From an uncultured archaeon (GTDB lineage Archaea > Asgardarchaeota > Heimdallarchaeia > Heimdallarchaeales > Kariarchaeaceae): a stretch of DNA of 12,389 nt. Location: contig CAZYCQ010000079.1 of the NCBI GenBank assembly GCA_964645535.1, positions 1 through 12,389 of the forward strand, given 5' to 3'. The notes under the pieces were generated by a model. It saw only the letters and a list, made by a program, of their open reading frames with translations, was not told where the DNA came from and made no database searches. A program made the translations under genes and the position numbers. This document shows positions 1 to 12,389 of this stretch, piece after piece (within the stretch, counting starts at the first letter, position 1; every line of letters starts with the position of its first letter).

Positions 1-87
1 ACATCACAAACGGAGGCATCATTGTCGATGTTCGGCATTATCTTGGGAATTCTTGTTCTTCGAAGAAAAAGTCTAATGATGCCGTAG
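1..87 (+). CDS. 3' end of a gene entering from the left; possible C-terminal membrane anchor/sorting tail of a surface protein (partial)
   Basis: Frame 1 reads TSQTEASLSMFGIILGILVLRRKSLMMP* (TAG 85-87): a Ser/Thr stretch, a hydrophobic segment, then RRK. It would overlap the convergent trxB end by 15 nt. Only 28 codons are visible. Confidence 0.4.
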   Translation, partial: TSQTEASLSMFGIILGILVLRRKSLMMP

Positions 88-1254
88 ATATTCCCTCATA
101 CTCAAGGCTGCTGCAGCCCCCTCTCCCATGGCGGAAACTGCCTGCTTGGTTGAGCCCGATCTGACATCACCAGCAGCAAATAGTCCGGGAGTTTTTGTCA
201 TGAGAGTGCCATCCGTCTTGATAAAGCCTCCTTCATCAAGATCAACAAGATCTTTCACCATTTCCACGTTTGGAGTCAGACCGATGAAGAGGAAAACACC
301 ATCCGGATGAATGGTTTCCAATTCACCAGTCTTGCGATGTTCAATGACAACCCCTTCAAGTGTTTTCTTCGGACCGACCTTGAATTCCTTCACCACTACA
401 CCTTCTTTCACTTCTATGTTTTCTGTGGCATTTACCTTTTCTTGAAGGATGGGGGAGGCACGGGGCTTGGAACGAACTAGAATCGTCACTTTCTTCAGGT
501 GGCGAGCAAGGAAGAGGGATTCTTCGTAGGCAGAATTTCCACCACCGACAACAATAACTTCCTTGCCCTTATACCAGATAAAGTCACATGTGGCACAGAA
601 ATGGATCTTATAGCCGATCAATTCGGATTCACCGGGTACATCAAGCCTCTTGTAGCGTGAACCGGTTGCAATGAGCATGGCCCATCCAGAAGTCTCCCTT
701 CCATCAGTAGAACGAGCCACCAAGACCCCGTTGTCAACAAATACCTTCTCCACTTCGGTTGCTTTGAGGAATTCGACACCATATTGCTCCGTCTGTTTTA
801 CAATACGTTCAGCAAGTTCAGAGCCAGCAATACCTTCAGGAAAGCCAGGGTAGTTGTCCAATCGTTCGGTAAAACCAGCCTGTCCACCCAAGGAGCCCCG
901 TTCCACGACAACCACATCATAACCATCCCTAGCATTGTACAAAGCGGCAGTAAGCCCTGCCGGCCCTCCTCCAACAATAACAATGTCGTGGAAATCATGA
1001 CCCAAGTCGGCGACCAATCCTAGTTTTTCAGCCAATTCAGCATTGCTGGGTTCAACTAGCACACTGCCGTCACTGAAGACAATGGTGGGAACCTTCCGTT
1101 TACCGTTATTAATCTGCATGACGAATTCTGCAGCCTCTGGATCTTGTTCAATATCAACCCAGTCATATGAAATTCTGTGCTCTCCAAGAAATTGTTTGGC
1201 TCGTTTGCAATCACTGCACCACGATGTACCATAGAACTTATCTATTGTTACCAT
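73..1254 (-). CDS. trxB: Thioredoxin-disulfide reductase fused to an N-terminal glutaredoxin/NrdH/mycoredoxin-like domain
   Basis: N-terminal WCSDC and VPT (thioredoxin fold). Then FAD-binding GGGPAG, NYPGF, IATGS, redox CATCD, NAD(P)H-binding GGGNSA and C-terminal GLFAAGD..KQA. Confidence 0.92.
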   Translation of the reverse strand: MVTIDKFYGTSWCSDCKRAKQFLGEHRISYDWVDIEQDPEAAEFVMQINNGKRKVPTIVFSDGSVLVEPSNAELAEKLGLVADLGHDFHDIVIVGGGPAGLTAALYNARDGYDVVVVERGSLGGQAGFTERLDNYPGFPEGIAGSELAERIVKQTEQYGVEFLKATEVEKVFVDNGVLVARSTDGRETSGWAMLIATGSRYKRLDVPGESELIGYKIHFCATCDFIWYKGKEVIVVGGGNSAYEESLFLARHLKKVTILVRSKPRASPILQEKVNATENIEVKEGVVVKEFKVGPKKTLEGVVIEHRKTGELETIHPDGVFLFIGLTPNVEMVKDLVDLDEGGFIKTDGTLMTKTPGLFAAGDVRSGSTKQAVSAMGEGAAAALSMREYLRHH

Positions 1255-1314: not shown

Positions 1315-4300
1315 TCATATTTCTTCACGTTTCAGGACAAAAGCAACACCGGGTGCACCGTTTGAGGAGACCGCCTGCCAATCACTTGGACCATCAGTGT
1401 CGACTGTAAGGTCGATTCGTGCCAAGCTCTGCCCAGTGGATGCACTGATGCTCCATCCTGCAACATAGTTCTCCCATGCAACAAAATCGATCTCTGTTCC
1501 AGATGCATCCTTGAGACTCAGCATATCACCACTATTGCCCAAGGCAAGATTTAGGTCACCAAAATCAGGATTGAACCCGTAAAGGGCGAAGAAACCAGAT
1601 GTGGAACGGGCAATTACAAGAAAGCCCCCTGCAGGGATCACAGTGCCGGATGCGATAGAGTACGTACGAGAATTATCAGAGATTGTCCATCCAGTGAGAT
1701 CCACTGAAGAGCCAGTAGGATTGTACAGTTCAATCCATTCCTCAACGCTGTCCTTTCCGGGGGTGTCATAGAATACCTCAGAGATGATAATATGATCCAA
1801 GCCAGCGGCAGGTGTAGTTGCATTTGTGGCGATTGAACGAAGTCCTTCATTTCCGGACATGTCCACTGCACTTACCTCATAGCTGTAGGAAGTGCCTGCA
1901 CTCAGACCGACATCACTGTAGGAGGAAGTCGAAACTGATGCCACAAGGACACCGTCACGATATACGTTGTAATGATCCAAGTCAGGTTCAGTATTTGCAG
2001 TCCATGTGAGATCAATCTGTGAAGAGGAAACTGCGTTTGCCGTCAAACCCTGTACCTGCCCAGGAGGAGTGGTATCGGTTGGTGCCCATGCACTCAGATC
2101 AAAGATTCCATCGACAGAATAGTGATCAGATGCACCGGTTGCAGAAGGAGTATCCCCAACAGTGGATGAAAGCATTTGTCCTGCAAGGTATCCATTGACC
2201 ACCATGAAATCAATTCTTGATTCATAGGGAGATGTATAGTAGGTATAACCGGGATCTGTCGGGTTAAGTGTTCTGAAAACGTCGGTAAAGGTATGGACGG
2301 TGGAGGAATATTGACCATAGGTAGCATTTGCAGGATCCACAAGCATTGTCATCGGGCCATATCCCAAATTTCCGTTGGGAGCCAAGGCACCTGTATCTTG
2401 AGGTGAGAATGAATTAAGATCCCCTGCATAAATGATGTTAGCGGAGGAACCCAATGAATCCATGTAATTGATGATGCCTTCCTGTGCCCGTTCCCTCTTG
2501 TTCTCATTGGTTGTACCACTGGAAGCCTTCAAGTGAGCCCCGATGAAATGGACCGTACCGGTGCCGATGGCAAGCTTGACATCTATGAAGTCATGGGAAA
2601 CGTCATAGAGTGAACCGCTATCCAGTGTGACCAACGGGATGAGCTTGGCAGAGAGAATTGGGACACGGCTAAGCACTGCAAGACCTGTATACATACTTCC
2701 CTGACCAAGAGTCATGGCCTGAAGATAAGGAAGTTCATTTGAGAAATAAGTGTTCAGATCAACCAGCAATCGGTTTATGGTTGCGTTGCCACGATCATCC
2801 ATATCACCAGTCTCAACTAACAGCAGGACGTCGGGATTTTCCTCCTTGATCACATCAATGTAACCTGGATTCTGTCCCGATGCCTCGATGTTGTATGTCA
2901 TGAATTTGACGGCGGAATAATCCAAGGGAGCGACTCCTCCAAAAGCGGAGTTGTCAACATTAACTGTGACGGAAGTTGTGATTGAGTTGCCGAACATGTC
3001 AGTAGCAATTGCGGCAATAGTGTGTGATCCTGCACTTGCAGATCGGGAATCCCATACATAGAAGCTTGAGTAGGACACAGCAACTCCATCAATGCGTATT
3101 TCCCAATCTTTGATCAGGCTTCTGTCATTACCGTCAAGTCCAATCGAAACAAATCCGGAAACTGTCTGACCATCCACCAATCCGATGAAGGAGAGTGAAG
3201 GAGCTTCCAGCTCGGTTCCCCAAGCCGAAAGATGACCAGTAGCGGGATACAGCACCGGTTGCGTGTTACTGCCATCGGCGTTCTGCCTCTCCGCAAATTC
3301 GGCAGAACAGCCAGAGGTTTGTCCGTCCCAAGTGACTGCACTCACACAGTAATAGTAGGTGGTTCCTGTGACTACATTGCTGTCAGTGGCATAGCCCACA
3401 GCCCAATTGACCTCCTGCATGAGATCCCAAGTGGATGCGGTATCGTTCCACTTCCAGACGAGATAGCTCTTAACGAGATCCGAAGGGGTGTTGCCGTTGA
3501 GATGAGGTCGCCAAGTAATGAAATTCTCACCAGGATACCCGCTGTAATGCCGAGTGACGATTCGCGGTGCAGCCAAGGGATCTGAATCATAGTTGTCCGC
3601 ATCCTGTTTATAGGCATTGACCCTCGCAATGTAATGGGCTGCAATCGTTGGGCTGTGAATCACCAAGGCATTCTCGTCGTTGCTGTTGAAGCCAGAACCA
3701 CTCCAATTAGTACTTCCCGTCCAGACGATACTACCGTCAAACACTCCGAATTTGTGGTGATAGACACCCGGATTGGCATCGACGACGCCACCACCCCATG
3801 AAATGACATCATCAGCCTCACTGTAGGCATTCCTCCAACCACGATAGTCAAAAACACCCACAATAGCCACACCTCGATCACGGGCGCGTACAATTGCATC
3901 ATAAATTGAGTTCTCAGTAAGATAGAAGAGGGAAAGATAGATTGAACTGTTTGATGAATCAATCAGCTCAATCAGTCGCGTGAGACCCGTGTCTTTCGGA
4001 GAGAAGTAAGCTTCGACCTGTATCGATCCTGCCATCGCAATTTCCGCATTATTGTCCACCTTGGACGTTCCATAGGTATTCGCAAACAATTGGTCGAATT
4101 CTGCCTGATAGATGCCAGCCAACTCAGTACTCTTGATCCGAACCGCATCATTGGCATTGAAGAGCGTCCCCGTATCTGTCGGGTTCCAAGAGCCCGTAAA
4201 AACATATTCCCCATCAACAATGAAGAATTTGTTGTGCATGATGTTGGTTGTGGTGACCGCAGTCACAGAGATCCCTGCGTCGATCAAGGGTTGGAATTCG

Positions 4301-5361
4301 CCGATATTGTCACCATGTGCTGCTACACGCACCTGTACACCCCGAAGATGGGCATTGATAAGGGCGTCAATAGCAGGTTGCCAGCTCAGATGGTAGAGAG
4401 CGGCATCCACACTGACATTGGCACTGTCAAGCAAGCTCACCAGCCCATCAGAAATATTGCCAGGGTAAAGGTTCTCCATTGTGGGAACTGCTGCCAAGGG
4501 ATCTGTGAAATATACCTTGATCAGATCGGATACAGGACTGTTGTCTACTGTGACGTCTTTTGAAGTGGTTCCCACATTACCTGCGGCATCAAATGCATCA
4601 CATGTGATTGTATGCAGTCCCGAAGATTCCAACGTAGTATCCCAAAGATAGGAAGAACTCTGTGTACGTTCAACACCATCTATTTTTATGGAATAACCCG
4701 TCACACCAACGTTATCAGTAGCTGAACAGGTAACCTGTACCTGTCCTGCAACCACACTGCTGGTAGGGCTGTCAATGGAGACAACTGGAGCAGTAATGTC
4801 ACCCACACCATAACCGGAGCCTGGGGTGCCCAAAGAACCACTATCCGCCCAGTCACTGCCGGTATCGGTATCAATGGGCATCTGCGAAGAATCACTGAGA
4901 CGGTGGATCGTGCCATCAACCGCTGAAGCAGACCAACCGGTAACATAGGATTCCCAAGCCACAAAGTCAACAACCGTACCGGCATCATCCTTCAGGGTGA
5001 GCTGGTCACCACTATTCCCCAAAGCAAGGGTGATCAATCCATCAGGAAGAAAACCATACAGGGACTGGAAACCGGCATTGTCACGGGCAAGCACAAGATA
5101 GCCGCCAGAAGGAATGGTCACCAAAGGAAGGGCATTGCCCTTAGTATTGTCTTCAAGTGTCCACCCCGCAACTGAAATCGATGTCGAGGTGGGATTGAAA
5201 ATCTCAACCCATTCACAGGTCGAATCACAACCGGGAGTGTCATACAGCACTTCCGTAATGATCAGATTCGTCCCCGATGGATTGGAAACCGTGCCATGGT
5301 TGGCAAAACTTAGCCCCATGGCAACAATGAGCAGGAGTGAAAAAAGCTTGCGGGCACTCAT
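1315..5361 (-). CDS. Large secreted multidomain nuclease-like protein (~1348 aa): signal peptide, lamin-tail domain, Ig-like, two PLD (HKD) domains, FN3-like, Ig-like, EEP domain, FN3, lamin-tail domain
   Basis: Likely start MSARKLFSLLLIVAMGLSFA at ATG 5361 (signal peptide); the extension to 5541 looks non-coding. LTD motifs IITEVLYDTPG..EWVEIFNPT and IISEVFYDTPG..EWIELYNPT. HKD motifs HNKFFIVD-x6-GSWN (~4183-4236) and HHKFGVFD-x6-GSTN (~3706-3759). EEP motifs MTYNI, AGDLNS, SRIDF, SDH. FN3 motif LTWTAN..YSYEVSAVD. Confidence 0.88.
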   Translation of the reverse strand: MSARKLFSLLLIVAMGLSFANHGTVSNPSGTNLIITEVLYDTPGCDSTCEWVEIFNPTSTSISVAGWTLEDNTKGNALPLVTIPSGGYLVLARDNAGFQSLYGFLPDGLITLALGNSGDQLTLKDDAGTVVDFVAWESYVTGWSASAVDGTIHRLSDSSQMPIDTDTGSDWADSGSLGTPGSGYGVGDITAPVVSIDSPTSSVVAGQVQVTCSATDNVGVTGYSIKIDGVERTQSSSYLWDTTLESSGLHTITCDAFDAAGNVGTTSKDVTVDNSPVSDLIKVYFTDPLAAVPTMENLYPGNISDGLVSLLDSANVSVDAALYHLSWQPAIDALINAHLRGVQVRVAAHGDNIGEFQPLIDAGISVTAVTTTNIMHNKFFIVDGEYVFTGSWNPTDTGTLFNANDAVRIKSTELAGIYQAEFDQLFANTYGTSKVDNNAEIAMAGSIQVEAYFSPKDTGLTRLIELIDSSNSSIYLSLFYLTENSIYDAIVRARDRGVAIVGVFDYRGWRNAYSEADDVISWGGGVVDANPGVYHHKFGVFDGSIVWTGSTNWSGSGFNSNDENALVIHSPTIAAHYIARVNAYKQDADNYDSDPLAAPRIVTRHYSGYPGENFITWRPHLNGNTPSDLVKSYLVWKWNDTASTWDLMQEVNWAVGYATDSNVVTGTTYYYCVSAVTWDGQTSGCSAEFAERQNADGSNTQPVLYPATGHLSAWGTELEAPSLSFIGLVDGQTVSGFVSIGLDGNDRSLIKDWEIRIDGVAVSYSSFYVWDSRSASAGSHTIAAIATDMFGNSITTSVTVNVDNSAFGGVAPLDYSAVKFMTYNIEASGQNPGYIDVIKEENPDVLLLVETGDMDDRGNATINRLLVDLNTYFSNELPYLQAMTLGQGSMYTGLAVLSRVPILSAKLIPLVTLDSGSLYDVSHDFIDVKLAIGTGTVHFIGAHLKASSGTTNENKRERAQEGIINYMDSLGSSANIIYAGDLNSFSPQDTGALAPNGNLGYGPMTMLVDPANATYGQYSSTVHTFTDVFRTLNPTDPGYTYYTSPYESRIDFMVVNGYLAGQMLSSTVGDTPSATGASDHYSVDGIFDLSAWAPTDTTPPGQVQGLTANAVSSSQIDLTWTANTEPDLDHYNVYRDGVLVASVSTSSYSDVGLSAGTSYSYEVSAVDMSGNEGLRSIATNATTPAAGLDHIIISEVFYDTPGKDSVEEWIELYNPTGSSVDLTGWTISDNSRTYSIASGTVIPAGGFLVIARSTSGFFALYGFNPDFGDLNLALGNSGDMLSLKDASGTEIDFVAWENYVAGWSISASTGQSLARIDLTVDTDGPSDWQAVSSNGAPGVAFVLKREEI

Positions 5362-5680
5362 TACGCAAAATCTCCGGAATTTTTGGGAAATTATCTGAAT
5401 CCCCTTCCAAATGACTTTCTTTAAACCTTGTGGCAATTGACTTGCAAATATTTGAATGCGCCGCACAGGAAACGGATACACCACAAAATTGCTAGATCCA
5501 GCTCTCAGAAGACAATTCAAACCCAAACACAAACGGCGCACTTTTACGATTTTCGAGATAATTTTTCTCCATACGCATGGGATTTTACGATTTTTTTACC
5601 AACAGCTGCAAATTTTTGTAACAAGTCACTTTCAGACACCAGTCCACAACCTTAAACTGCCCGCAATCCCTACAAAGACT

Positions 5681-6094: not shown

Positions 6095-6496
6095 CTAGGT
6101 ATCGAAATTCTTCAGTCGATCGTCAAAAGTAAGGATACCTTTGCAAGCCGTCTGACGGGACGAAACGTATACTATCGCGTCCGTTAAGGTAAGTGGCTTC
6201 CTCTCCCCGAGCTCTGATCGAAAAATCTTCAGGGCATCACTGAAAATAGATTCATTACAATACAGAACATTACAGAAACCATTTTCCAAAAGAACATAAC
6301 TCCACTCTATTGCAGTCTGTATCCCTGCAACTTTCGTCATTATCAGAAAGAACTCATCTAGCACATAATCTGAAGTGAGAAGTTGCAAAAAATGATCCTG
6401 CTTGAAATTTGTTAATTGGGAAACTGCTTCATCATGATACTTGTCTGCCTTGTTTGCCAAAGCCACAAAAAAAGATGTGTCAAGAAAATACCGCAT
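6095..6496 (-). CDS. vapC: PIN-domain ribonuclease toxin (VapC family)
   Basis: MRYFLDTSFFVAL..D-x-x-H..TSDYVLDE..LTLTDA..ILTFD gives the acidic PIN tetrad. ATG 6496 lies 1 nt after the antitoxin stop and is preceded by GGAGG. Confidence 0.9.
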   Translation of the reverse strand: MRYFLDTSFFVALANKADKYHDEAVSQLTNFKQDHFLQLLTSDYVLDEFFLIMTKVAGIQTAIEWSYVLLENGFCNVLYCNESIFSDALKIFRSELGERKPLTLTDAIVYVSSRQTACKGILTFDDRLKNFDT

Positions 6497-6497
6497 T

Positions 6498-6761
6498 TCA
6501 ACCCTCCGCAACAAGATCATCCAACATTTCAGGATCTGTACGTATCTTCCACTCCGATGAAAGCGACAGAACCTTGTCAATCGAGGAGGAGGTGGTGAAA
6601 TTGAAATCAAGAAGCTGCTGGAAATCACGGGAACCCAACTTCACAAGCATATCCAAAAGATCCTGCTGAGAAATCTTTCGACCTAACTTCAAAGTCAGTC
6701 TAGCCTGCAGTCGATCCAGTTCAGCTTTTGTCTCATCCCGAATCTTGATTGAAGAAGCCAT
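6498..6761 (-). CDS. Antitoxin (VapB-like, ribbon-helix-helix type N-terminus)
   Basis: MASSIKIRDETKAELDRLQARL..KISQQDLLDMLV (beta strand plus two helices) with an acidic C-terminal DPEMLDDLV; directly upstream of vapC. Confidence 0.8.
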   Translation of the reverse strand: MASSIKIRDETKAELDRLQARLTLKLGRKISQQDLLDMLVKLGSRDFQQLLDFNFTTSSSIDKVLSLSSEWKIRTDPEMLDDLVAEG

Positions 6762-6780
6762 ATGTGAATAAGGAAGCCAC

Positions 6781-6816
6781 AATTAATATACATTTCTACA
6801 AATAATACTTTTCTAC
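6781..6816 (-). promoter_or_regulatory. Putative archaeal promoter of the vapBC operon with an adjacent direct repeat
   Basis: Minus strand GAAATGTATATTAATT (BRE/TATA-like) lies about 20-35 nt upstream of ATG 6761. Direct repeat ATACATTTCTAC (6788-6799) / ATACTTTTCTAC (6805-6816). Confidence 0.45.
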
Positions 6817-7100: not shown

Positions 7101-7466
7101 ATGTTCAGAGCCGAAGAGGTGGAAAAGGAAGCAAAGGATTTCAGCAAACTGGAGATCCATCCAAAACATAGGCAAATGATTGAACAGGTGGCACAGGTTA
7201 TGGAGAAATATATCGACATCAGCCACCTGGCACTCATGGGATTCGCATGGAAATCAATCAAAGATTGGCAGATCGAACACAAAATGACTGCACTTGAAGT
7301 CAGCCTTAGATCCAGACCAGAAAGGGACAAAGCAACATGGGAAATGTTCCAGATTTGCAGGGGATACCTCGAAAGAATTCTTAGAGACCCAGAAGACAAA
7401 GGAAAACTGAAAACAGCAATAGATGAAGCCTACCAATATTATCTCGACCACCTCTCAAAACCCTGA
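7101..7466 (+). CDS. Hypothetical all-alpha-helical protein (121 aa)
   Basis: Clean ORF with protein-like charged/amphipathic composition; TTTTAATA at 7071-7078, about 25 nt upstream of the ATG. No motif recognised. Confidence 0.75.
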   Translation: MFRAEEVEKEAKDFSKLEIHPKHRQMIEQVAQVMEKYIDISHLALMGFAWKSIKDWQIEHKMTALEVSLRSRPERDKATWEMFQICRGYLERILRDPEDKGKLKTAIDEAYQYYLDHLSKP

Positions 7467-7623: not shown

Positions 7624-9675
7624 CTAAACACACCAAATGAAATGAGTCGGGTCTTTCGGAAAGGCACCCTGTTTTGCCTTCTTGTTCGCTTTCTTTGCAA
7701 ATTCAATGTTCGAAGGAAATTTTGTAATCTCCAGTGCTGACCCAATATGGAGCCGACATAGTTTTGCAATGTCTTCCATCAGAGACTCACAATTTGAACC
7801 TTCAACATGGATGGGTTGAGGGGTCTGATGTTTGACACCTTTACTTTCATAATACCTGTAAATGATCGAGCTTGTTTGAATATAGCCATTGTTGTTGTCA
7901 AGGATAAAGTAAGCAATGTCAAAGGGCATGTGCGTATCACGAAATCGGTCAAAAATCCGCGTGGCGCGTGGTTCAGTGATCCGATAGATTGGTTTAGAAG
8001 TTTTAACCAACAGGTTAATTTCTTTTTTTGAAAAGGTAATTCCAGAATAAAGAATAATATCGAATGGAGGAAAACAAGAAAGCAATTTTTTTAAGGCAAC
8101 GGAGCCATTCTTTTCTTCGACGGTGAATATTTGCGTGTGTCGCCCACTTTTTTCGGTTAAAACAGCAGAATAGAGAAAATTATTTCCTTTTTTGTCCTTG
8201 TGGATACCTAGGTAGCTTGCAGTCATTGCACGTTCCAATTCCCAATTTGGCAAGCCCCCATTTGCACCGATACCGAGAACAACATTGTTTATCTTTTTTC
8301 GAAAATCTTTCGGGTTCATTGTCTGAACCGGAATGCCTCGATTTGTCAAATTACGAATTATTGGCTCATCGTACCCAATTTGGAGAACACAACCATTCCC
8401 ATTCAGCTTGATTGCATCAATATTTTCTACCATCTTAACGACGATTTTCTTGCCTAGTTTATTCGACAGGAAACCTTTCGAAGTTTTGACTGATTCGCCC
8501 CTAAGCAAGGTTTCAACAACATCTTTTGAAAAGAGGAAATTTAAAATGGCTTTCAATTCCTTTGTGGTAATTCCGTGATGATGAATAAACAATTCAAAGC
8601 TTTCTCTCTTTTTCCGAGTATTGTGCTTTAGTCGGTCGGAAACTGAACCGAATACCTTACCGTCAAATTTTATATTTGGCAGGTCAATTGTACCCCTATT
8701 CTTGGGCACAAACAAGGCAGGGGTTAATCGTTTTCCAAAGATTTCTAGATTGGACAGTTCCCTGGCAAAATGACTCTCAATTTCAAAATATTTCTTTTCA
8801 GGACTTAGCGCAATATGTGTTGACAATTCCTGTCTTTCTGGAAATTTCAGATGTTTCATTTCTATTAATGGTTTCAAACGTTCAAGGGGATAGGTATAAC
8901 CATTGTCAAGAACAGCCAAGAAGTCAGTACGGTTGATGCCTTTAACAATATAGCCATTGTTTTCACATCTGTCATTTGCAAAGTCTACCAAAGTTTTTCC
9001 ATTTAAATTGTATGTAAAGGGATTACCCTTGACTATTTTTTCAACATTCCATTTCCGTGATGCCATCAAAGGCGAAAGAGGACAGTTTAACAGGAATTTT
9101 GAACAATCAGACTGTGGACAAATATCGTAAACAGTTTTATTATTGAGCTGCAAGTCCCCATCTTTTGAAACCCAATCTGCAAGTGTTTTTTTCGTAAAGA
9201 GCCTGTAACAGGTATCCAGAAAGAATCCCCATCCACCATCGAAAACAACAACTTGAATGCGATAACCCATGTACGCTAAAACTTCCGATTGAATTACTGG
9301 ATGTTTTTCAAAAAATTCCAAAAATTCTTGTTGATCATATCGATAGTATTCTGGCATGTGGGTAACGGCGTAAGCATTGCGAACCTTTTCCTTTATGATC
9401 TGATAGATCAGCTGTTTCCAATCCTCGGAATCCGGTCTGATTTTTTCTGCATCAAGACCATGATCTCTAAGTTTTTGAACGGATTTGCCAAGCATTCTCT
9501 GAACTACAATAATGGATTTGCCAATGGAATAGTGGATTGCGTCTGTGTCTTGAAAAATATCTGCAACGACACCTTCAACATCTTTCTCTGGATCATTGGC
9601 TATTTTCAAAAATGTGATGTCAAGTTCTGAAAAATGAACTTTGAATTTGAAGAAATTTGGAACGACATCTGTCAT
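7624..9675 (-). CDS. Divergent long prokaryotic Argonaute-like protein (N-L1-PAZ-L2-MID-PIWI), predicted catalytically inactive (Ago-1)
   Basis: 683 aa. L1-like YMGYRIQVVVFDGGWGFFLDTCYRL; PAZ-end YTYPLERL; L2 LSPEKKYFEI; MID GIPVQTM..NNVVLGIGANGGLPNWEL (cf. GIPxQ..NxxLxxxAKxGGxPW); PIWI YLGIH (cf. IGID), IILYSG (cf. IIHRDG), TPQPIHV, IAKLCRL..TKFPSNIEFAKK (cf. LPxTIxYADK). Confidence 0.78.
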   Translation of the reverse strand: MTDVVPNFFKFKVHFSELDITFLKIANDPEKDVEGVVADIFQDTDAIHYSIGKSIIVVQRMLGKSVQKLRDHGLDAEKIRPDSEDWKQLIYQIIKEKVRNAYAVTHMPEYYRYDQQEFLEFFEKHPVIQSEVLAYMGYRIQVVVFDGGWGFFLDTCYRLFTKKTLADWVSKDGDLQLNNKTVYDICPQSDCSKFLLNCPLSPLMASRKWNVEKIVKGNPFTYNLNGKTLVDFANDRCENNGYIVKGINRTDFLAVLDNGYTYPLERLKPLIEMKHLKFPERQELSTHIALSPEKKYFEIESHFARELSNLEIFGKRLTPALFVPKNRGTIDLPNIKFDGKVFGSVSDRLKHNTRKKRESFELFIHHHGITTKELKAILNFLFSKDVVETLLRGESVKTSKGFLSNKLGKKIVVKMVENIDAIKLNGNGCVLQIGYDEPIIRNLTNRGIPVQTMNPKDFRKKINNVVLGIGANGGLPNWELERAMTASYLGIHKDKKGNNFLYSAVLTEKSGRHTQIFTVEEKNGSVALKKLLSCFPPFDIILYSGITFSKKEINLLVKTSKPIYRITEPRATRIFDRFRDTHMPFDIAYFILDNNNGYIQTSSIIYRYYESKGVKHQTPQPIHVEGSNCESLMEDIAKLCRLHIGSALEITKFPSNIEFAKKANKKAKQGAFPKDPTHFIWCV

Positions 9676-10457
9676 GGAAGCACCCTCGAAATGGCTTTTG
9701 GATTTATGTGAACCAGAAATGCAATTAAATCAGTAAAGCTTTCCAAGTTTTTCAACCTTTCACCCAGCAAAGGAATTATTTGGTAAATGACCTGTTGAAA
9801 TGCCATTTTTACCTGTTCCTTGTAAGAGAGCCACTGATTGAGAACATTCGGTTTTGTTGCATCACAAATGATTTCAAAGTAGAGTGAATCACCAATGAAT
9901 TTGCCGATTAGAACAAAATTTTCCAAACCCAATTCATGGAATGAAACATCAGGAATCCGCAACAGCAAAGCAGATCCATCACCTGCACCTTCAATTGAAA
10001 AGAAGTCACCATCATCCTCTTTCTCAAATGCTTTTCGAAGACCTTCTGCGAAACAGACCCCTACTTTAAATGGAGTATCCACAATCAACTTCACGCGAGG
10101 AACATTGCCTTTAGATAAGGCATCCCTTAGATTTGACAACTGATTGAAAACCGAAAGACCCTTTTCCGTCAACTCATATTTTCTGGTATCTTTTCTTATC
10201 GATGTCACTAAGTTAAACTGCCTCAACCCCTTCATTGCATAATGAATTTTTTGCCGATAGATTGCAGGCTCTGACGCGTCTTCAGTCCCATCCGCCTCAA
10301 CAGCAGATACGAGAGCCCTTAGCTCGGATTCCAATTCCGATACCGATAGAGGGCCATTACGAAGGATGTAGAGAATTTCCAAAGCATATGGACGGAAAAG
10401 TGCCTTGAGAATTTGCCGAAGATCAACAAACATATTATGAAAATTAATTTTTGACAT
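9672..10457 (-). CDS. Winged helix-turn-helix (ArsR/HxlR-like) transcriptional regulator with an uncharacterised C-terminal domain
   Basis: ILKALFRPYALEILYILRNGPLSVSELESEL..RQKIHYAMKGLRQFNLV..RKYELTEKG is a classic wHTH. The stop overlaps the Ago-1 start (ATGA, 9672-9675). The true start may be the second Met at 10433. Confidence 0.85.
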   Translation of the reverse strand: MSKINFHNMFVDLRQILKALFRPYALEILYILRNGPLSVSELESELRALVSAVEADGTEDASEPAIYRQKIHYAMKGLRQFNLVTSIRKDTRKYELTEKGLSVFNQLSNLRDALSKGNVPRVKLIVDTPFKVGVCFAEGLRKAFEKEDDGDFFSIEGAGDGSALLLRIPDVSFHELGLENFVLIGKFIGDSLYFEIICDATKPNVLNQWLSYKEQVKMAFQQVIYQIIPLLGERLKNLESFTDLIAFLVHINPKAISRVLP

Positions 10458-10498
10458 TTAAACATATTTATTGAGTTTTATCCAAAATTAATTTTCAT
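10437..10498. promoter_or_regulatory. 18-bp inverted repeat (17/18) with palindromic core AAAATTAATTTT in the divergent promoter; candidate operator
   Basis: ATGAAAATTAATTTTTGA (10437-10454) versus TCCAAAATTAATTTTCAT (10481-10498); cores at 10440-10451 and 10484-10495. Confidence 0.6.
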
Positions 10499-10533
10499 CA
10501 AAATTTATCAGTTGTTTGGTCAACATATCAGAT

Positions 10534-12389
10534 ATGGTTACAACAAACCTTATCGCTACAAAACAACCAATAATGCAAGAGATCAACGTGACAATCGTTG
10601 ATTGCGACCAACTTGACTACAAGGAAAAGGCAAGAATGGCCACAAAATTCCAAAATGAACTGAAAACCATCACCACATTCGGAGAATCTGTCATTCTAGT
10701 TGGATCATTCAACAAAAACAAATTGAGCAGGATATTGCAAGGAAAGAAATACAAGATCAGCCACAGAACCCTTAAATCCAAAAACAACCAAGACATAAAC
10801 CTCCTCCAAAAAATAGCTAGACAAGCAGTCAAAAAACTGTTTCACAATATGGGATATACAATACAGGAAGGAGGCAAGTTGTTCAAGCCTAAGCCCCATA
10901 ATATTCAATCAGGAATTCAAGTTCATGAAGCCGTCGATTTTAATGTAATTGTAACAAAACAAGGTTACCTGATTGTAGCAATCGACCCATGCTATAGAAA
11001 CACCAAATTTCTTACTTCAAAAGAAATAAAGAACGGCATGACCATCAGAGTCCCATACGGAACAACATGGATCGATGCAACCATCATCGAAATAATCAAT
11101 GGAGGGCTAATGGAAAAGGGACGCCATCCAACTAACCCAAACAAAACACTCATCGAATACTGGACACAAGAAAAATCCTGGTTCCTCAAAAAATATGCAA
11201 TTGGATCCATTACTGATTTTGATGCAGTCCTAGTTGAAATTCATAATGAAGAGAGATTGCAACTCACATATCCAATTGCAGTCTGCAGAAAATTGCTTGA
11301 TCCAAAGAAAATGAAACTTCCAAAACTTACTGCGAAGAAAACAACAATACTTTCAATCATCAATAGCCTTAGCCACCACGAATTGCAGATTGGGGACAAA
11401 AAAACCTCATTTACATCCTCTCCGCTTACTAACCAACAGTTGACCAAATACGGCTTCAGCTTCGGAAAATTTGACATACCCGTCCTGAAATTCAAATCAA
11501 CAACATTCCAACCAAAAAATGGAAAAGGACATGAGATCAGAAAACAATTAAAAAAAGACGGACCACACGCCAAACCAAAACAACTGATCGTAAATATCAT
11601 CTCCACATTAAAGCAACAGCAAAATGAAATTATCGCCAGACAGATAATCAGTGATGCAGCAAATATGAATTTGGGAACATGGAAAATTGGAAAGTTCATC
11701 GACTTAAAAAAAGGACACTCAGAACTCAACAAAGCAATACAAAACATATCAGCCAATGAGGTCTTCGCAATAATCCCAGGAAAAACAACTAACAACTCTT
11801 ATGACACACTAAACCATAAATTGGCAAAAAAAGGAATCGTCTGCAAGAACTTACGCATGAAAAACGCAACTGAAATCATAAAAAAAAAAAAAAAAGGAAT
11901 AAAAACAAGTGAAACCATTGCAATCAGCCTATTCGCAAGAAGCCTCAAAAACGGTGAAAACATCGTCCTGCTGAAAAATGGACTTGAATCAAACGCAAAA
12001 TTCCCAATTTTCCTCACCCTTGACATTAGCAGAGATCCAAAATCCGCAAAATCATATTCCGCAACCATAACCGCAATCGATCAACAAGGAATAATCATCA
12101 AATGTCCACAAACCATCACGTTTACTGAAGGATACTTCGATCCAAATGATATCGCACAATGGATTAAGACAACAATAAATTACGTCAATCAAATCACCAA
12201 CAAACAACCGGATACATTCATTTACGTACATGATGGAAGACTGAACAGAAACCAAGTCAACGCACTCCAAAAAGGAATAGAAAAAATAACCGCAAATAAT
12301 TACCTCATAGTTGAAGCTACAAAAAGAGTCAACGAAAGATTCAGCGACAACAATATTGATGGAACATGGATGAAAGCACAGGACAAAAC
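10534..12389 (+). CDS. Second divergent long Argonaute-like protein (Ago-2), partial at the 3' end (>618 aa), with catalytic-type PIWI residues
   Basis: Absent from the ORF track. By hand translation it is open from ATG 10534 (MVTTNLIATK..) to the window end. L1-like GIQVHEAVDFNVIVTKQGYLIVAIDPCYR; PAZ-like KTLIEYW..LTYPIAVC; L2 PVLKF..KDGPH; MID VFAIIPG..SYDTLNHKLAKKGIVCKNL; PIWI IFLTLDISR (D497), TEG (E532), FIYVHDGR (D567), YLIVEATKR..ERF..GTW. Confidence 0.85.
   Translation, partial: MVTTNLIATKQPIMQEINVTIVDCDQLDYKEKARMATKFQNELKTITTFGESVILVGSFNKNKLSRILQGKKYKISHRTLKSKNNQDINLLQKIARQAVKKLFHNMGYTIQEGGKLFKPKPHNIQSGIQVHEAVDFNVIVTKQGYLIVAIDPCYRNTKFLTSKEIKNGMTIRVPYGTTWIDATIIEIINGGLMEKGRHPTNPNKTLIEYWTQEKSWFLKKYAIGSITDFDAVLVEIHNEERLQLTYPIAVCRKLLDPKKMKLPKLTAKKTTILSIINSLSHHELQIGDKKTSFTSSPLTNQQLTKYGFSFGKFDIPVLKFKSTTFQPKNGKGHEIRKQLKKDGPHAKPKQLIVNIISTLKQQQNEIIARQIISDAANMNLGTWKIGKFIDLKKGHSELNKAIQNISANEVFAIIPGKTTNNSYDTLNHKLAKKGIVCKNLRMKNATEIIKKKKKGIKTSETIAISLFARSLKNGENIVLLKNGLESNAKFPIFLTLDISRDPKSAKSYSATITAIDQQGIIIKCPQTITFTEGYFDPNDIAQWIKTTINYVNQITNKQPDTFIYVHDGRLNRNQVNALQKGIEKITANNYLIVEATKRVNERFSDNNIDGTWMKAQDK
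11880..11895 (+). repeat. A16 homopolymer tract, in frame within Ago-2 (encodes a Lys5 run)
   Basis: ATA AAA AAA AAA AAA AAA GGA at 11878-11898. Confidence 0.9.

Follow-up and report, generated by a model that had tools for sequence, protein, structure and literature searches.

The 12,389-nt contig CAZYCQ010000079.1 of an uncultured Asgard archaeon of the Kariarchaeaceae (contig C79 of a 3.6-Mb, 89%-complete metagenome-assembled genome (MAG), analysed in its entirety and called the window below) carries two Argonaute genes, Ago-1 and Ago-2, on either side of a gene for a winged helix-turn-helix (wHTH) protein. On balance, we think it somewhat probable that this locus is one form of a two-Argonaute module, conserved in archaea and mostly in those of the Asgard group, that is directed against foreign nucleic acid; its core would be a wHTH gene translationally coupled to a catalytically dead Ago-1 with a four-Cys PAZ, and its second Argonaute would be exchangeable. 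The folds of the two proteins, their catalytic residues, the order of the genes, the recurrence of the pair in other genomes and the separate ancestry of its members are shown; the mechanism by which the module would act at the window locus is inferred.

A two-Argonaute system had been proposed for this DNA from its letters alone. Since both proteins model as MID-PIWI Argonautes, failure of which had been named in advance as fatal to the proposal, and since the Ago-wHTH-Ago arrangement is conserved elsewhere, the module is supported; its constant part, however, proves to be the dead Ago-1 plus the wHTH protein rather than an inactive Argonaute plus an active one.

Two long Argonautes with different catalytic residues

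The adjacency of the three genes is not an assembly chimera, because a separately assembled Logan contig, possibly from the same sample, covers 9339-12203 without a gap. The best sequencing run containing the locus is, by its run record, a hot-spring metagenome; no RNA run was listed for it, which says nothing about expression.

Ago-1 is an open reading frame (ORF) intact over its whole length (Table 1). Its AlphaFold model (pLDDT 87.4, pTM 0.88) is predicted to run through N-L1-PAZ-L2-MID-PIWI along the entire chain, as in a long Argonaute, and matches CpAgo with a Z score of 27.0 and a root-mean-square deviation of 5.2 over 606 aligned residues (model span 1-683); TtAgo is matched as well. 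By sequence, A. aeolicus Ago is matched at E 1.6e-4, and in profile comparison CpAgo (6e-42, best together with CbAgo) stands far above EcAgo (3e-14) and structure entries that we take to be RsAgo (4e-4). At the positions of the DEDX tetrad Ago-1 has H492, S544 and K661, and the catalytic set is kept by no member of the core Ago-1 family; judged by these residues, Ago-1 is catalytically dead. Its MID pocket departs from Y-K-Q-K, with Q451 alone retained. In the PAZ region, four cysteines (C186, C191, C198 and C237) are invariant in 25/25 and 36/36 aligned rows, the motif being found in just 4 of 143 other Argonautes, all of them near the Ago-1 clade; the cluster is a probable Zn or Fe-S metal site. 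An inactive PIWI domain in a full-length protein is characteristic of long-B systems, yet no nuclease, Sir2 or membrane effector gene lies downstream of Ago-1 in its operon, the next gene being a convergent one (7101-7466, plus strand) with paralogues elsewhere in the genome.

Ago-2 begins at an ATG at 10534 on the opposite strand, 76 bp away from the wHTH start, as first described. The claim that both genes are full-length holds for Ago-1 and fails for Ago-2, which stops at the contig end with ~80 residues missing, the fourth catalytic position included: from the column of W612 onward its orthologues have 86-91 residues and the window protein 7. A search of the rest of the assembly for this part, by blastn of the contig end and with a profile of the missing C-terminus in six frames, found nothing; nor was an extension obtained from the Logan contigs, which end at 12203, or from a metagenome scan with the orthologue of locus L072.

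The part that is present is predicted (pLDDT 89.5, pTM 0.86) to adopt the N-L1-PAZ-L2-MID-PIWI fold, with the C-terminal ~80 residues outside the contig. Its best match is KmAgo (E 3.6e-27), and KmAgo and CpAgo are its best structure and profile matches. Ago-2 retains D497 (12022), E532 (12127) and D567 (12232), and the opposite catalytic status first proposed for the pair is thus borne out at the positions present, with the fourth position of Ago-2 lying beyond the contig. Among its relatives, the three closest (L072, L014 and L069) have H there, L104 has D, and L015 and L101-L103 have Q. Because the C-terminus is missing, the word "active" rests for Ago-2 on three residues and on its orthologues; it is probably a guide-directed cutter. 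The MID pocket reads Y423, N427, K438 and R469 in place of the canonical Y-K-Q-K 5'-phosphate pocket, and MID* variants are known among long-A prokaryotic Argonautes (pAgos; PMC6299218). An A16 tract in the gene (11880-11895), encoding a lysine run, is in frame and without a gap in the Logan contig; the genome has seven A/T tracts at least 14 long, this one included, and orthologues do not conserve it.

Neither protein reaches Pfam Piwi in Pfam scans, and surveys may have missed both families because they fall below the Pfam Piwi thresholds. A language-model search directs to Piwi clusters, and PADLOC pAgo models match; the best of these for Ago-1 (E 6e-31) and for the Ago-2 orthologues of L072 and L015 is named "PprPIWI", a name that was not found in the literature searched. 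Word-index homologue searches returned the query alone. Both proteins are long, so the pair is not a short pAgo with an APAZ partner (SPARTA/SPARSA/SPARDA).

Recurrence of the pair

Sequence searches of 400 genomes from the phylum and of 1.8 billion representatives supplied the homologues of Ago-1, the context of which was read afterwards. Within the core Ago-1 family, a second Argonaute lies within one to three genes in 18 of the 18 loci with readable context (L129, too short to judge, is outside this count). The pairing of an inactive with an active protein, on the other hand, is not general: the second Argonaute is full-length with catalytic residues in four loci, PAZ-less in four and itself dead in ten. 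Slicing is therefore not the invariant output of the module.

Three forms can be told apart. In type I, the form of the window, a full-length, PAZ-containing Argonaute diverges from the wHTH-Ago-1 pair and no Cas4 gene is seen. It comprises the window, L072 (GCA_015522385.1, WAMJ01000139.1), L069 and L015, which share order, orientation and short spacing, with proteins 20-32% identical and hosts from two orders; because the same layout recurs in these three other loci, the Ago-wHTH-Ago arrangement is not a matter of chance. In type II, the partner is without ~100 PAZ residues, has D-E-D-E, and is followed by a Cas4-like PD-(D/E)XK gene; the Argonaute genes of L068 point the same way, and those of L011, L065 and L051 diverge. 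Type III (L013, L045-L050, L067, L071 and L116, some cut by contig ends) is an operon of an exchangeable leading enzyme (where recognised, a Cap4-type nuclease or a metallophosphoesterase), a ~230-aa weakly wHTH-like gene, Ago-1, a dead PAZ-less Argonaute and a Cas4-like gene, and in it the two Argonaute genes abut or overlap. A Cas4-like/PD-(D/E)XK gene lies beside the partner Argonaute in 13 related loci, and the contig of L046 (type III) ends before any Cas4 gene. An Ago-2 orthologue is also borne by a 4,859-bp contig of a second genome of the same genus.

Separate ancestry of the two Argonautes

Ancestry was examined with a quick IQ-TREE analysis of the MID-PIWI region (66 rows, 382 columns; supports from the Shimodaira-Hasegawa-like approximate likelihood-ratio test), no verified long-B reference being included. 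Ago-1 proteins that have type I and II partners form one subclade (92), those with type III partners another (89). The partners of types II and III cluster (86), separate from those of type I. The window and L072 Ago-1 proteins pair as sisters (97), and the Ago-2 proteins of both loci fall in one clade with L014 (99).

Ago-1 and Ago-2 share 17% identity, and a clade uniting type I/II Ago-1 with Ago-2 proteins is rejected by the approximately unbiased test (p-AU 0.019). Local duplication of a single Argonaute is rejected on these grounds, and the likeness to eukaryotic Ago/PIWI paralogues that the original prediction drew is, on the same grounds, a weak one. One origin for all partner Argonautes is not rejected (p-AU 0.48). 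In this quick tree, with its long branches, the Ago-1 family forms a clade (95) with short inactive Argonautes, including that of L055, the locus of which contains PCNA/TniQ and so matches the description of HrAgo2, a reference identified by locus content only. The deep placement of Ago-1 is unsure because of the long branches. These relationships are consistent with an older pair consisting of Ago-1 and a PAZ-less Argonaute with Cas4, the latter two of which would then have given way, in the window lineage, to a self-sufficient slicer.

The wHTH protein and the shared control region

The coupling of Ago-1 to a wHTH gene stands as first described: the two genes overlap (Table 1), and the upstream product matches Pfam HTH_5 (E=3e-5) and the HxlR-family structure 3df8 (E=6e-6). 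Its N-terminal domain is ArsR/HxlR/DUF7347-like, and the C-terminal domain of ~140 aa has no match in Pfam or PDB sequences and belongs to no known family. Immediately upstream of Ago-1, a related wHTH gene is present in 7/7 divergent loci and in outer relatives of the family.

The palindrome AAAATTAATTTT occurs twice in the control region that the divergent genes share, the copies lying 44 bp apart inside 18-nt inverted arms. Two further copies elsewhere bring the genome total to four, and an arm of 18 nt was reached by 0/200 shuffles and by 4/300 AT-matched genome windows. Copy 1 overlaps the annotated wHTH start or, if the possible alternative start at 10433 is used, is immediately upstream of it; copy 2 directly precedes a TATA-like TTTAT (10504), which stands 26-30 nt before the Ago-2 ATG. 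Judged by archaeal promoter layout, this placement would suit autorepression of the wHTH gene together with control of Ago-2. Inverted repeats of different sequence are found in the corresponding region of other loci. Prediction of a complex of Ago-1, the wHTH protein and Zn scored 0.00, which speaks neither for nor against binding.

Proposed mechanism and its alternatives

At the window locus, the wHTH protein would bind the two palindromes and in this way repress the wHTH-Ago-1 transcript that encodes it and determine the expression of Ago-2. Ago-1 would bind guides or targets without cutting and so form a sensing or adaptor arm, and Ago-2 would act as executor: a slicer directed by guides, most likely against DNA given its likeness to long-A pAgos, and capable of working alone. 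Sensing by Ago-1 may then raise or license executor activity, most simply through the C-terminal domain of the wHTH protein. At other loci, the executor would be a PAZ-less or dead Argonaute with a Cas4-like nuclease, and the operon form would add an upstream toxic enzyme. A stronger version, which we consider rather unlikely, makes the four-cysteine Ago-1 and its coupled wHTH protein a guide-programmed switch that turns on an exchangeable executor Argonaute, the dead protein, on recognising foreign nucleic acid, controlling either the transcription factor or the second Argonaute directly. Were this so, two prokaryotic Argonautes would form a relay from sensor to slicer, and this in the lineage nearest to eukaryotes.

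Several observations weigh against a conserved two-Argonaute module of this kind. The independent cases are fewer than 18, because several of the loci are near relatives. Ago-2-type genes without an adjacent Ago-1 occur in at least five loci (L014, of the same genus, L104 and L101-L103), and no Ago-1 was found in the 89%-complete genome of L014. At the edge of the family, the outer Ago-1 relatives of L115 (Nitrososphaera viennensis), L128 and L052 are without a second Argonaute; L115 and L128 carry the wHTH-Ago pair, L052 is without the wHTH gene as well, and L117 is paired with an unrelated Argonaute. The palindrome AAAATTAATTTT is not common to the other loci, and in the operon form the small gene upstream of Ago-1 resembles the wHTH gene weakly (hhalign E=0.014, probability 3%). 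Because the MID pockets of both Ago-1 and Ago-2 are non-canonical, guide binding by either is not assured, and the fourth catalytic residue of Ago-2, with all that follows it, lies past the contig end.

The alternative that survives best is direct cooperation of the two Argonautes, as a heterodimer or by hand-off of guide or target, with the wHTH protein an ordinary autorepressor. The partner is without ~100 PAZ residues in 14 of the 18 loci and the PAZ region of Ago-1 is elaborated, which looks complementary; the abutting or overlapping Argonaute genes of the operon form point the same way, and heterodimers involving an Argonaute have precedents in AfAgo with its N-L1-L2 protein (PMC10954474) and in APACE1 (PMC12094033). 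The window partner, however, has a PAZ domain of its own and is encoded on the strand opposite to Ago-1, and members of its clade are also found alone. A fixed Ago-Ago interface is moreover hard to maintain because the partners span at least two or three lineages, even if a single origin is not rejected by the test given above. We regard direct cooperation as unlikely.

A second alternative separates the two proteins into independent arms that share induction and nothing else: Ago-1 would be a dead sensor of long-B or short type, its own effector lost at the window locus or located elsewhere, and Ago-2 a captured stand-alone slicer. The solitary Ago-2 orthologues (L014, L104 and L101-L103) fit this explanation, as do the clustering of Ago-1 with an HrAgo2-like short inactive Argonaute and the exchangeable Cap4-nuclease or metallophosphoesterase gene that comes first in the operon form. 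Yet in the window, L072, L069 and L011 Ago-1 is not followed by an effector gene, although its ORF is intact and its cysteines invariant, and the second Argonaute is present regardless of effector content; independent arms accordingly strike us as distinctly doubtful. Finally, chance juxtaposition in a defence island, to which one might look given the low GC content (0.37 across the Argonaute locus against 0.47-0.50 at the left of the contig and a genome mean of 0.41), a third Argonaute on another contig of the same genome and the frequency of Argonautes in Asgard genomes (21.5% of MAGs; PMC11217426), is largely refuted by recurrence, with the same order and orientation in four loci and a second Argonaute in 18/18 core loci, and we consider it very improbable.

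Feature coordinates, neighbouring genes and related loci

Table 1. Coordinates of the features of the two-Argonaute locus in the window
Feature	Position	Strand	Remarks
Ago-1	7624..9675	-	Full-length long Argonaute (N-L1-PAZ-L2-MID-PIWI), 683 aa, catalytically dead by its residues
Four-Cys cluster C186, C191, C198, C237, Ago-1 PAZ region	8965..9120	-	Probable Zn or Fe-S site, metal inferred
H492, first catalytic Asp position, Ago-1	8200..8202	-	
S544, third catalytic (RDG) position, Ago-1	8044..8046	-	
K661, fourth catalytic position, Ago-1	7693..7695	-	
wHTH regulator gene	9672..10457	-	261 aa; overlaps Ago-1 start by 4 bp
Operator candidate 1	10437..10454	.	18-nt arm around 12-bp palindrome AAAATTAATTTT (10440-10451)
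Operator candidate 2	10481..10498	.	AAAATTAATTTT again (10484-10495); putative function
Ago-2	10534..12389	+	PAZ-containing long Argonaute, 618 codons, cut by contig end

To the left of the module, the window contains a glutaredoxin-thioredoxin reductase fusion gene (73-1254, minus strand), a gene for a large, probably secreted protein with lamin-tail, Ig, two PLD, EEP nuclease and Fn3 domains (1315-5541, minus strand), and a PIN-domain gene with a small upstream gene (6095-6782, minus strand), probably a VapBC-type toxin-antitoxin pair; a PIN gene also adjoins the module in L072. The third Argonaute-like ORF of the genome (G000:C139:1550-3280, plus strand; up to 576 aa, MID-PIWI) is without a recognisable RDG motif, lies on a 3.4-kb contig with a GC content of 0.38 and is preceded by a 227-aa ORF.

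In the related loci the neighbours include methylases, HerA/NurA, RmuC and a Cap4-type nuclease, which speaks, like the low GC content of the Argonaute locus, for the main reading. HerA genes converge on Ago-1 in L011, L065 and L069 (with NurA too in L069); in L011, L015 and L065 the partner is followed by genes for RmuC or a DEDD exonuclease. Such HerA/NurA, RmuC and DEDD exonuclease neighbours may be guide-supply machinery. The solitary Ago-2-type genes of L101 (6855-11217), L102 and L103, with D-E-D-Q, diverge from genes for a 374-aa P-loop protein, conserved and with a wHTH-like C-terminus, and for a 265-aa protein of no recognised kind, with Mre11-like and HerA-like genes nearby (N-terminal sequence only); the arrangement is possibly another pAgo module. 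The 265-aa gene was considered as a relative of the wHTH gene and rejected, the two being unrelated by comparison. In L115 (7189-10319), from the cultured Nitrososphaera viennensis, a wHTH gene and a four-Cys Argonaute that keeps the first Asp stand before an SMC-like gene, and this locus offers a tractable model for the wHTH-Ago core.

Comparison with known systems

Stand-alone long-A pAgos (TtAgo, CbAgo, CpAgo and KmAgo) have the six-domain fold and the D-E-D residues that Ago-2 likewise has; the window locus differs from them in having two Argonautes, of which Ago-1 is dead, non-canonical MID pockets, a four-Cys PAZ and a dedicated wHTH protein. The long-B systems BPAN, BPAS and BPAM (RsAgo, EcAgo; PMC10620215) resemble Ago-1 in being full-length and inactive, some with HTH genes alongside, but Ago-1 matches long-B structures far more weakly than long-A ones and its constant neighbour is a second Argonaute. 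APACE1 and APACE2, in which a long-A pAgo is joined by the Cas4-family ACE (PMC12094033), share a Cas4-like gene with the 13 related loci noted above; APACE, however, has one active Argonaute and neither a dead one nor a wHTH protein. No Cas4-like gene was found in the window or in the complete type I loci L072 and L069, the region downstream of Ago-2 lying beyond the contig in the case of the window.

Among Asgard proteins, the HrAgo2 subclade, described as a mix of long and short asAgos, may be related to the Ago-1 family through the clade that this family shares, in the quick tree, with the short inactive Argonaute of L055. HrAgo2 is short, though, HrAgo1 and HrAgo2 lie in separate clusters, and the accessible part of that paper describes no paired-Argonaute or four-Cys form (PMC11217426). 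AfAgo and AfAgo-N (PMC10954474) are likewise two Argonaute-derived genes cooperating in an archaeon, but they make up a single split Argonaute, and here each gene has a MID-PIWI. Known systems are single-Argonaute ones: stand-alone long-A, long-B with an effector (PMC10620215), long-A with Cas4 (PMC12094033) and the split AfAgo (PMC10954474). Genomes with more than one pAgo are listed by Ryazansky et al. (PMC6299218), the accessible part of whose survey contains no paired operon. Descriptions of paired pAgos, wHTH-linked pAgos or a Cys/zinc PAZ were not found in the literature searched, which covered few subscription papers.

In the pAgo systems characterised to date, a single Argonaute acts by itself or beside a partner that is not an Argonaute, and a two-Argonaute module would be an architecture new among them. 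It would also bring to light a dead, four-Cys and probably metal-binding long Argonaute with its own regulator, in the archaeal lineage nearest to eukaryotes. Eukaryotes as a rule divide labour among their Argonautes; the module makes such division testable with four short genes (wHTH, Ago-1, Ago-2 and, where present, Cas4), and the Ago-2 clade, with its unusual guide pocket and a member from a hot-spring sample, may serve as a source of programmable nucleases.

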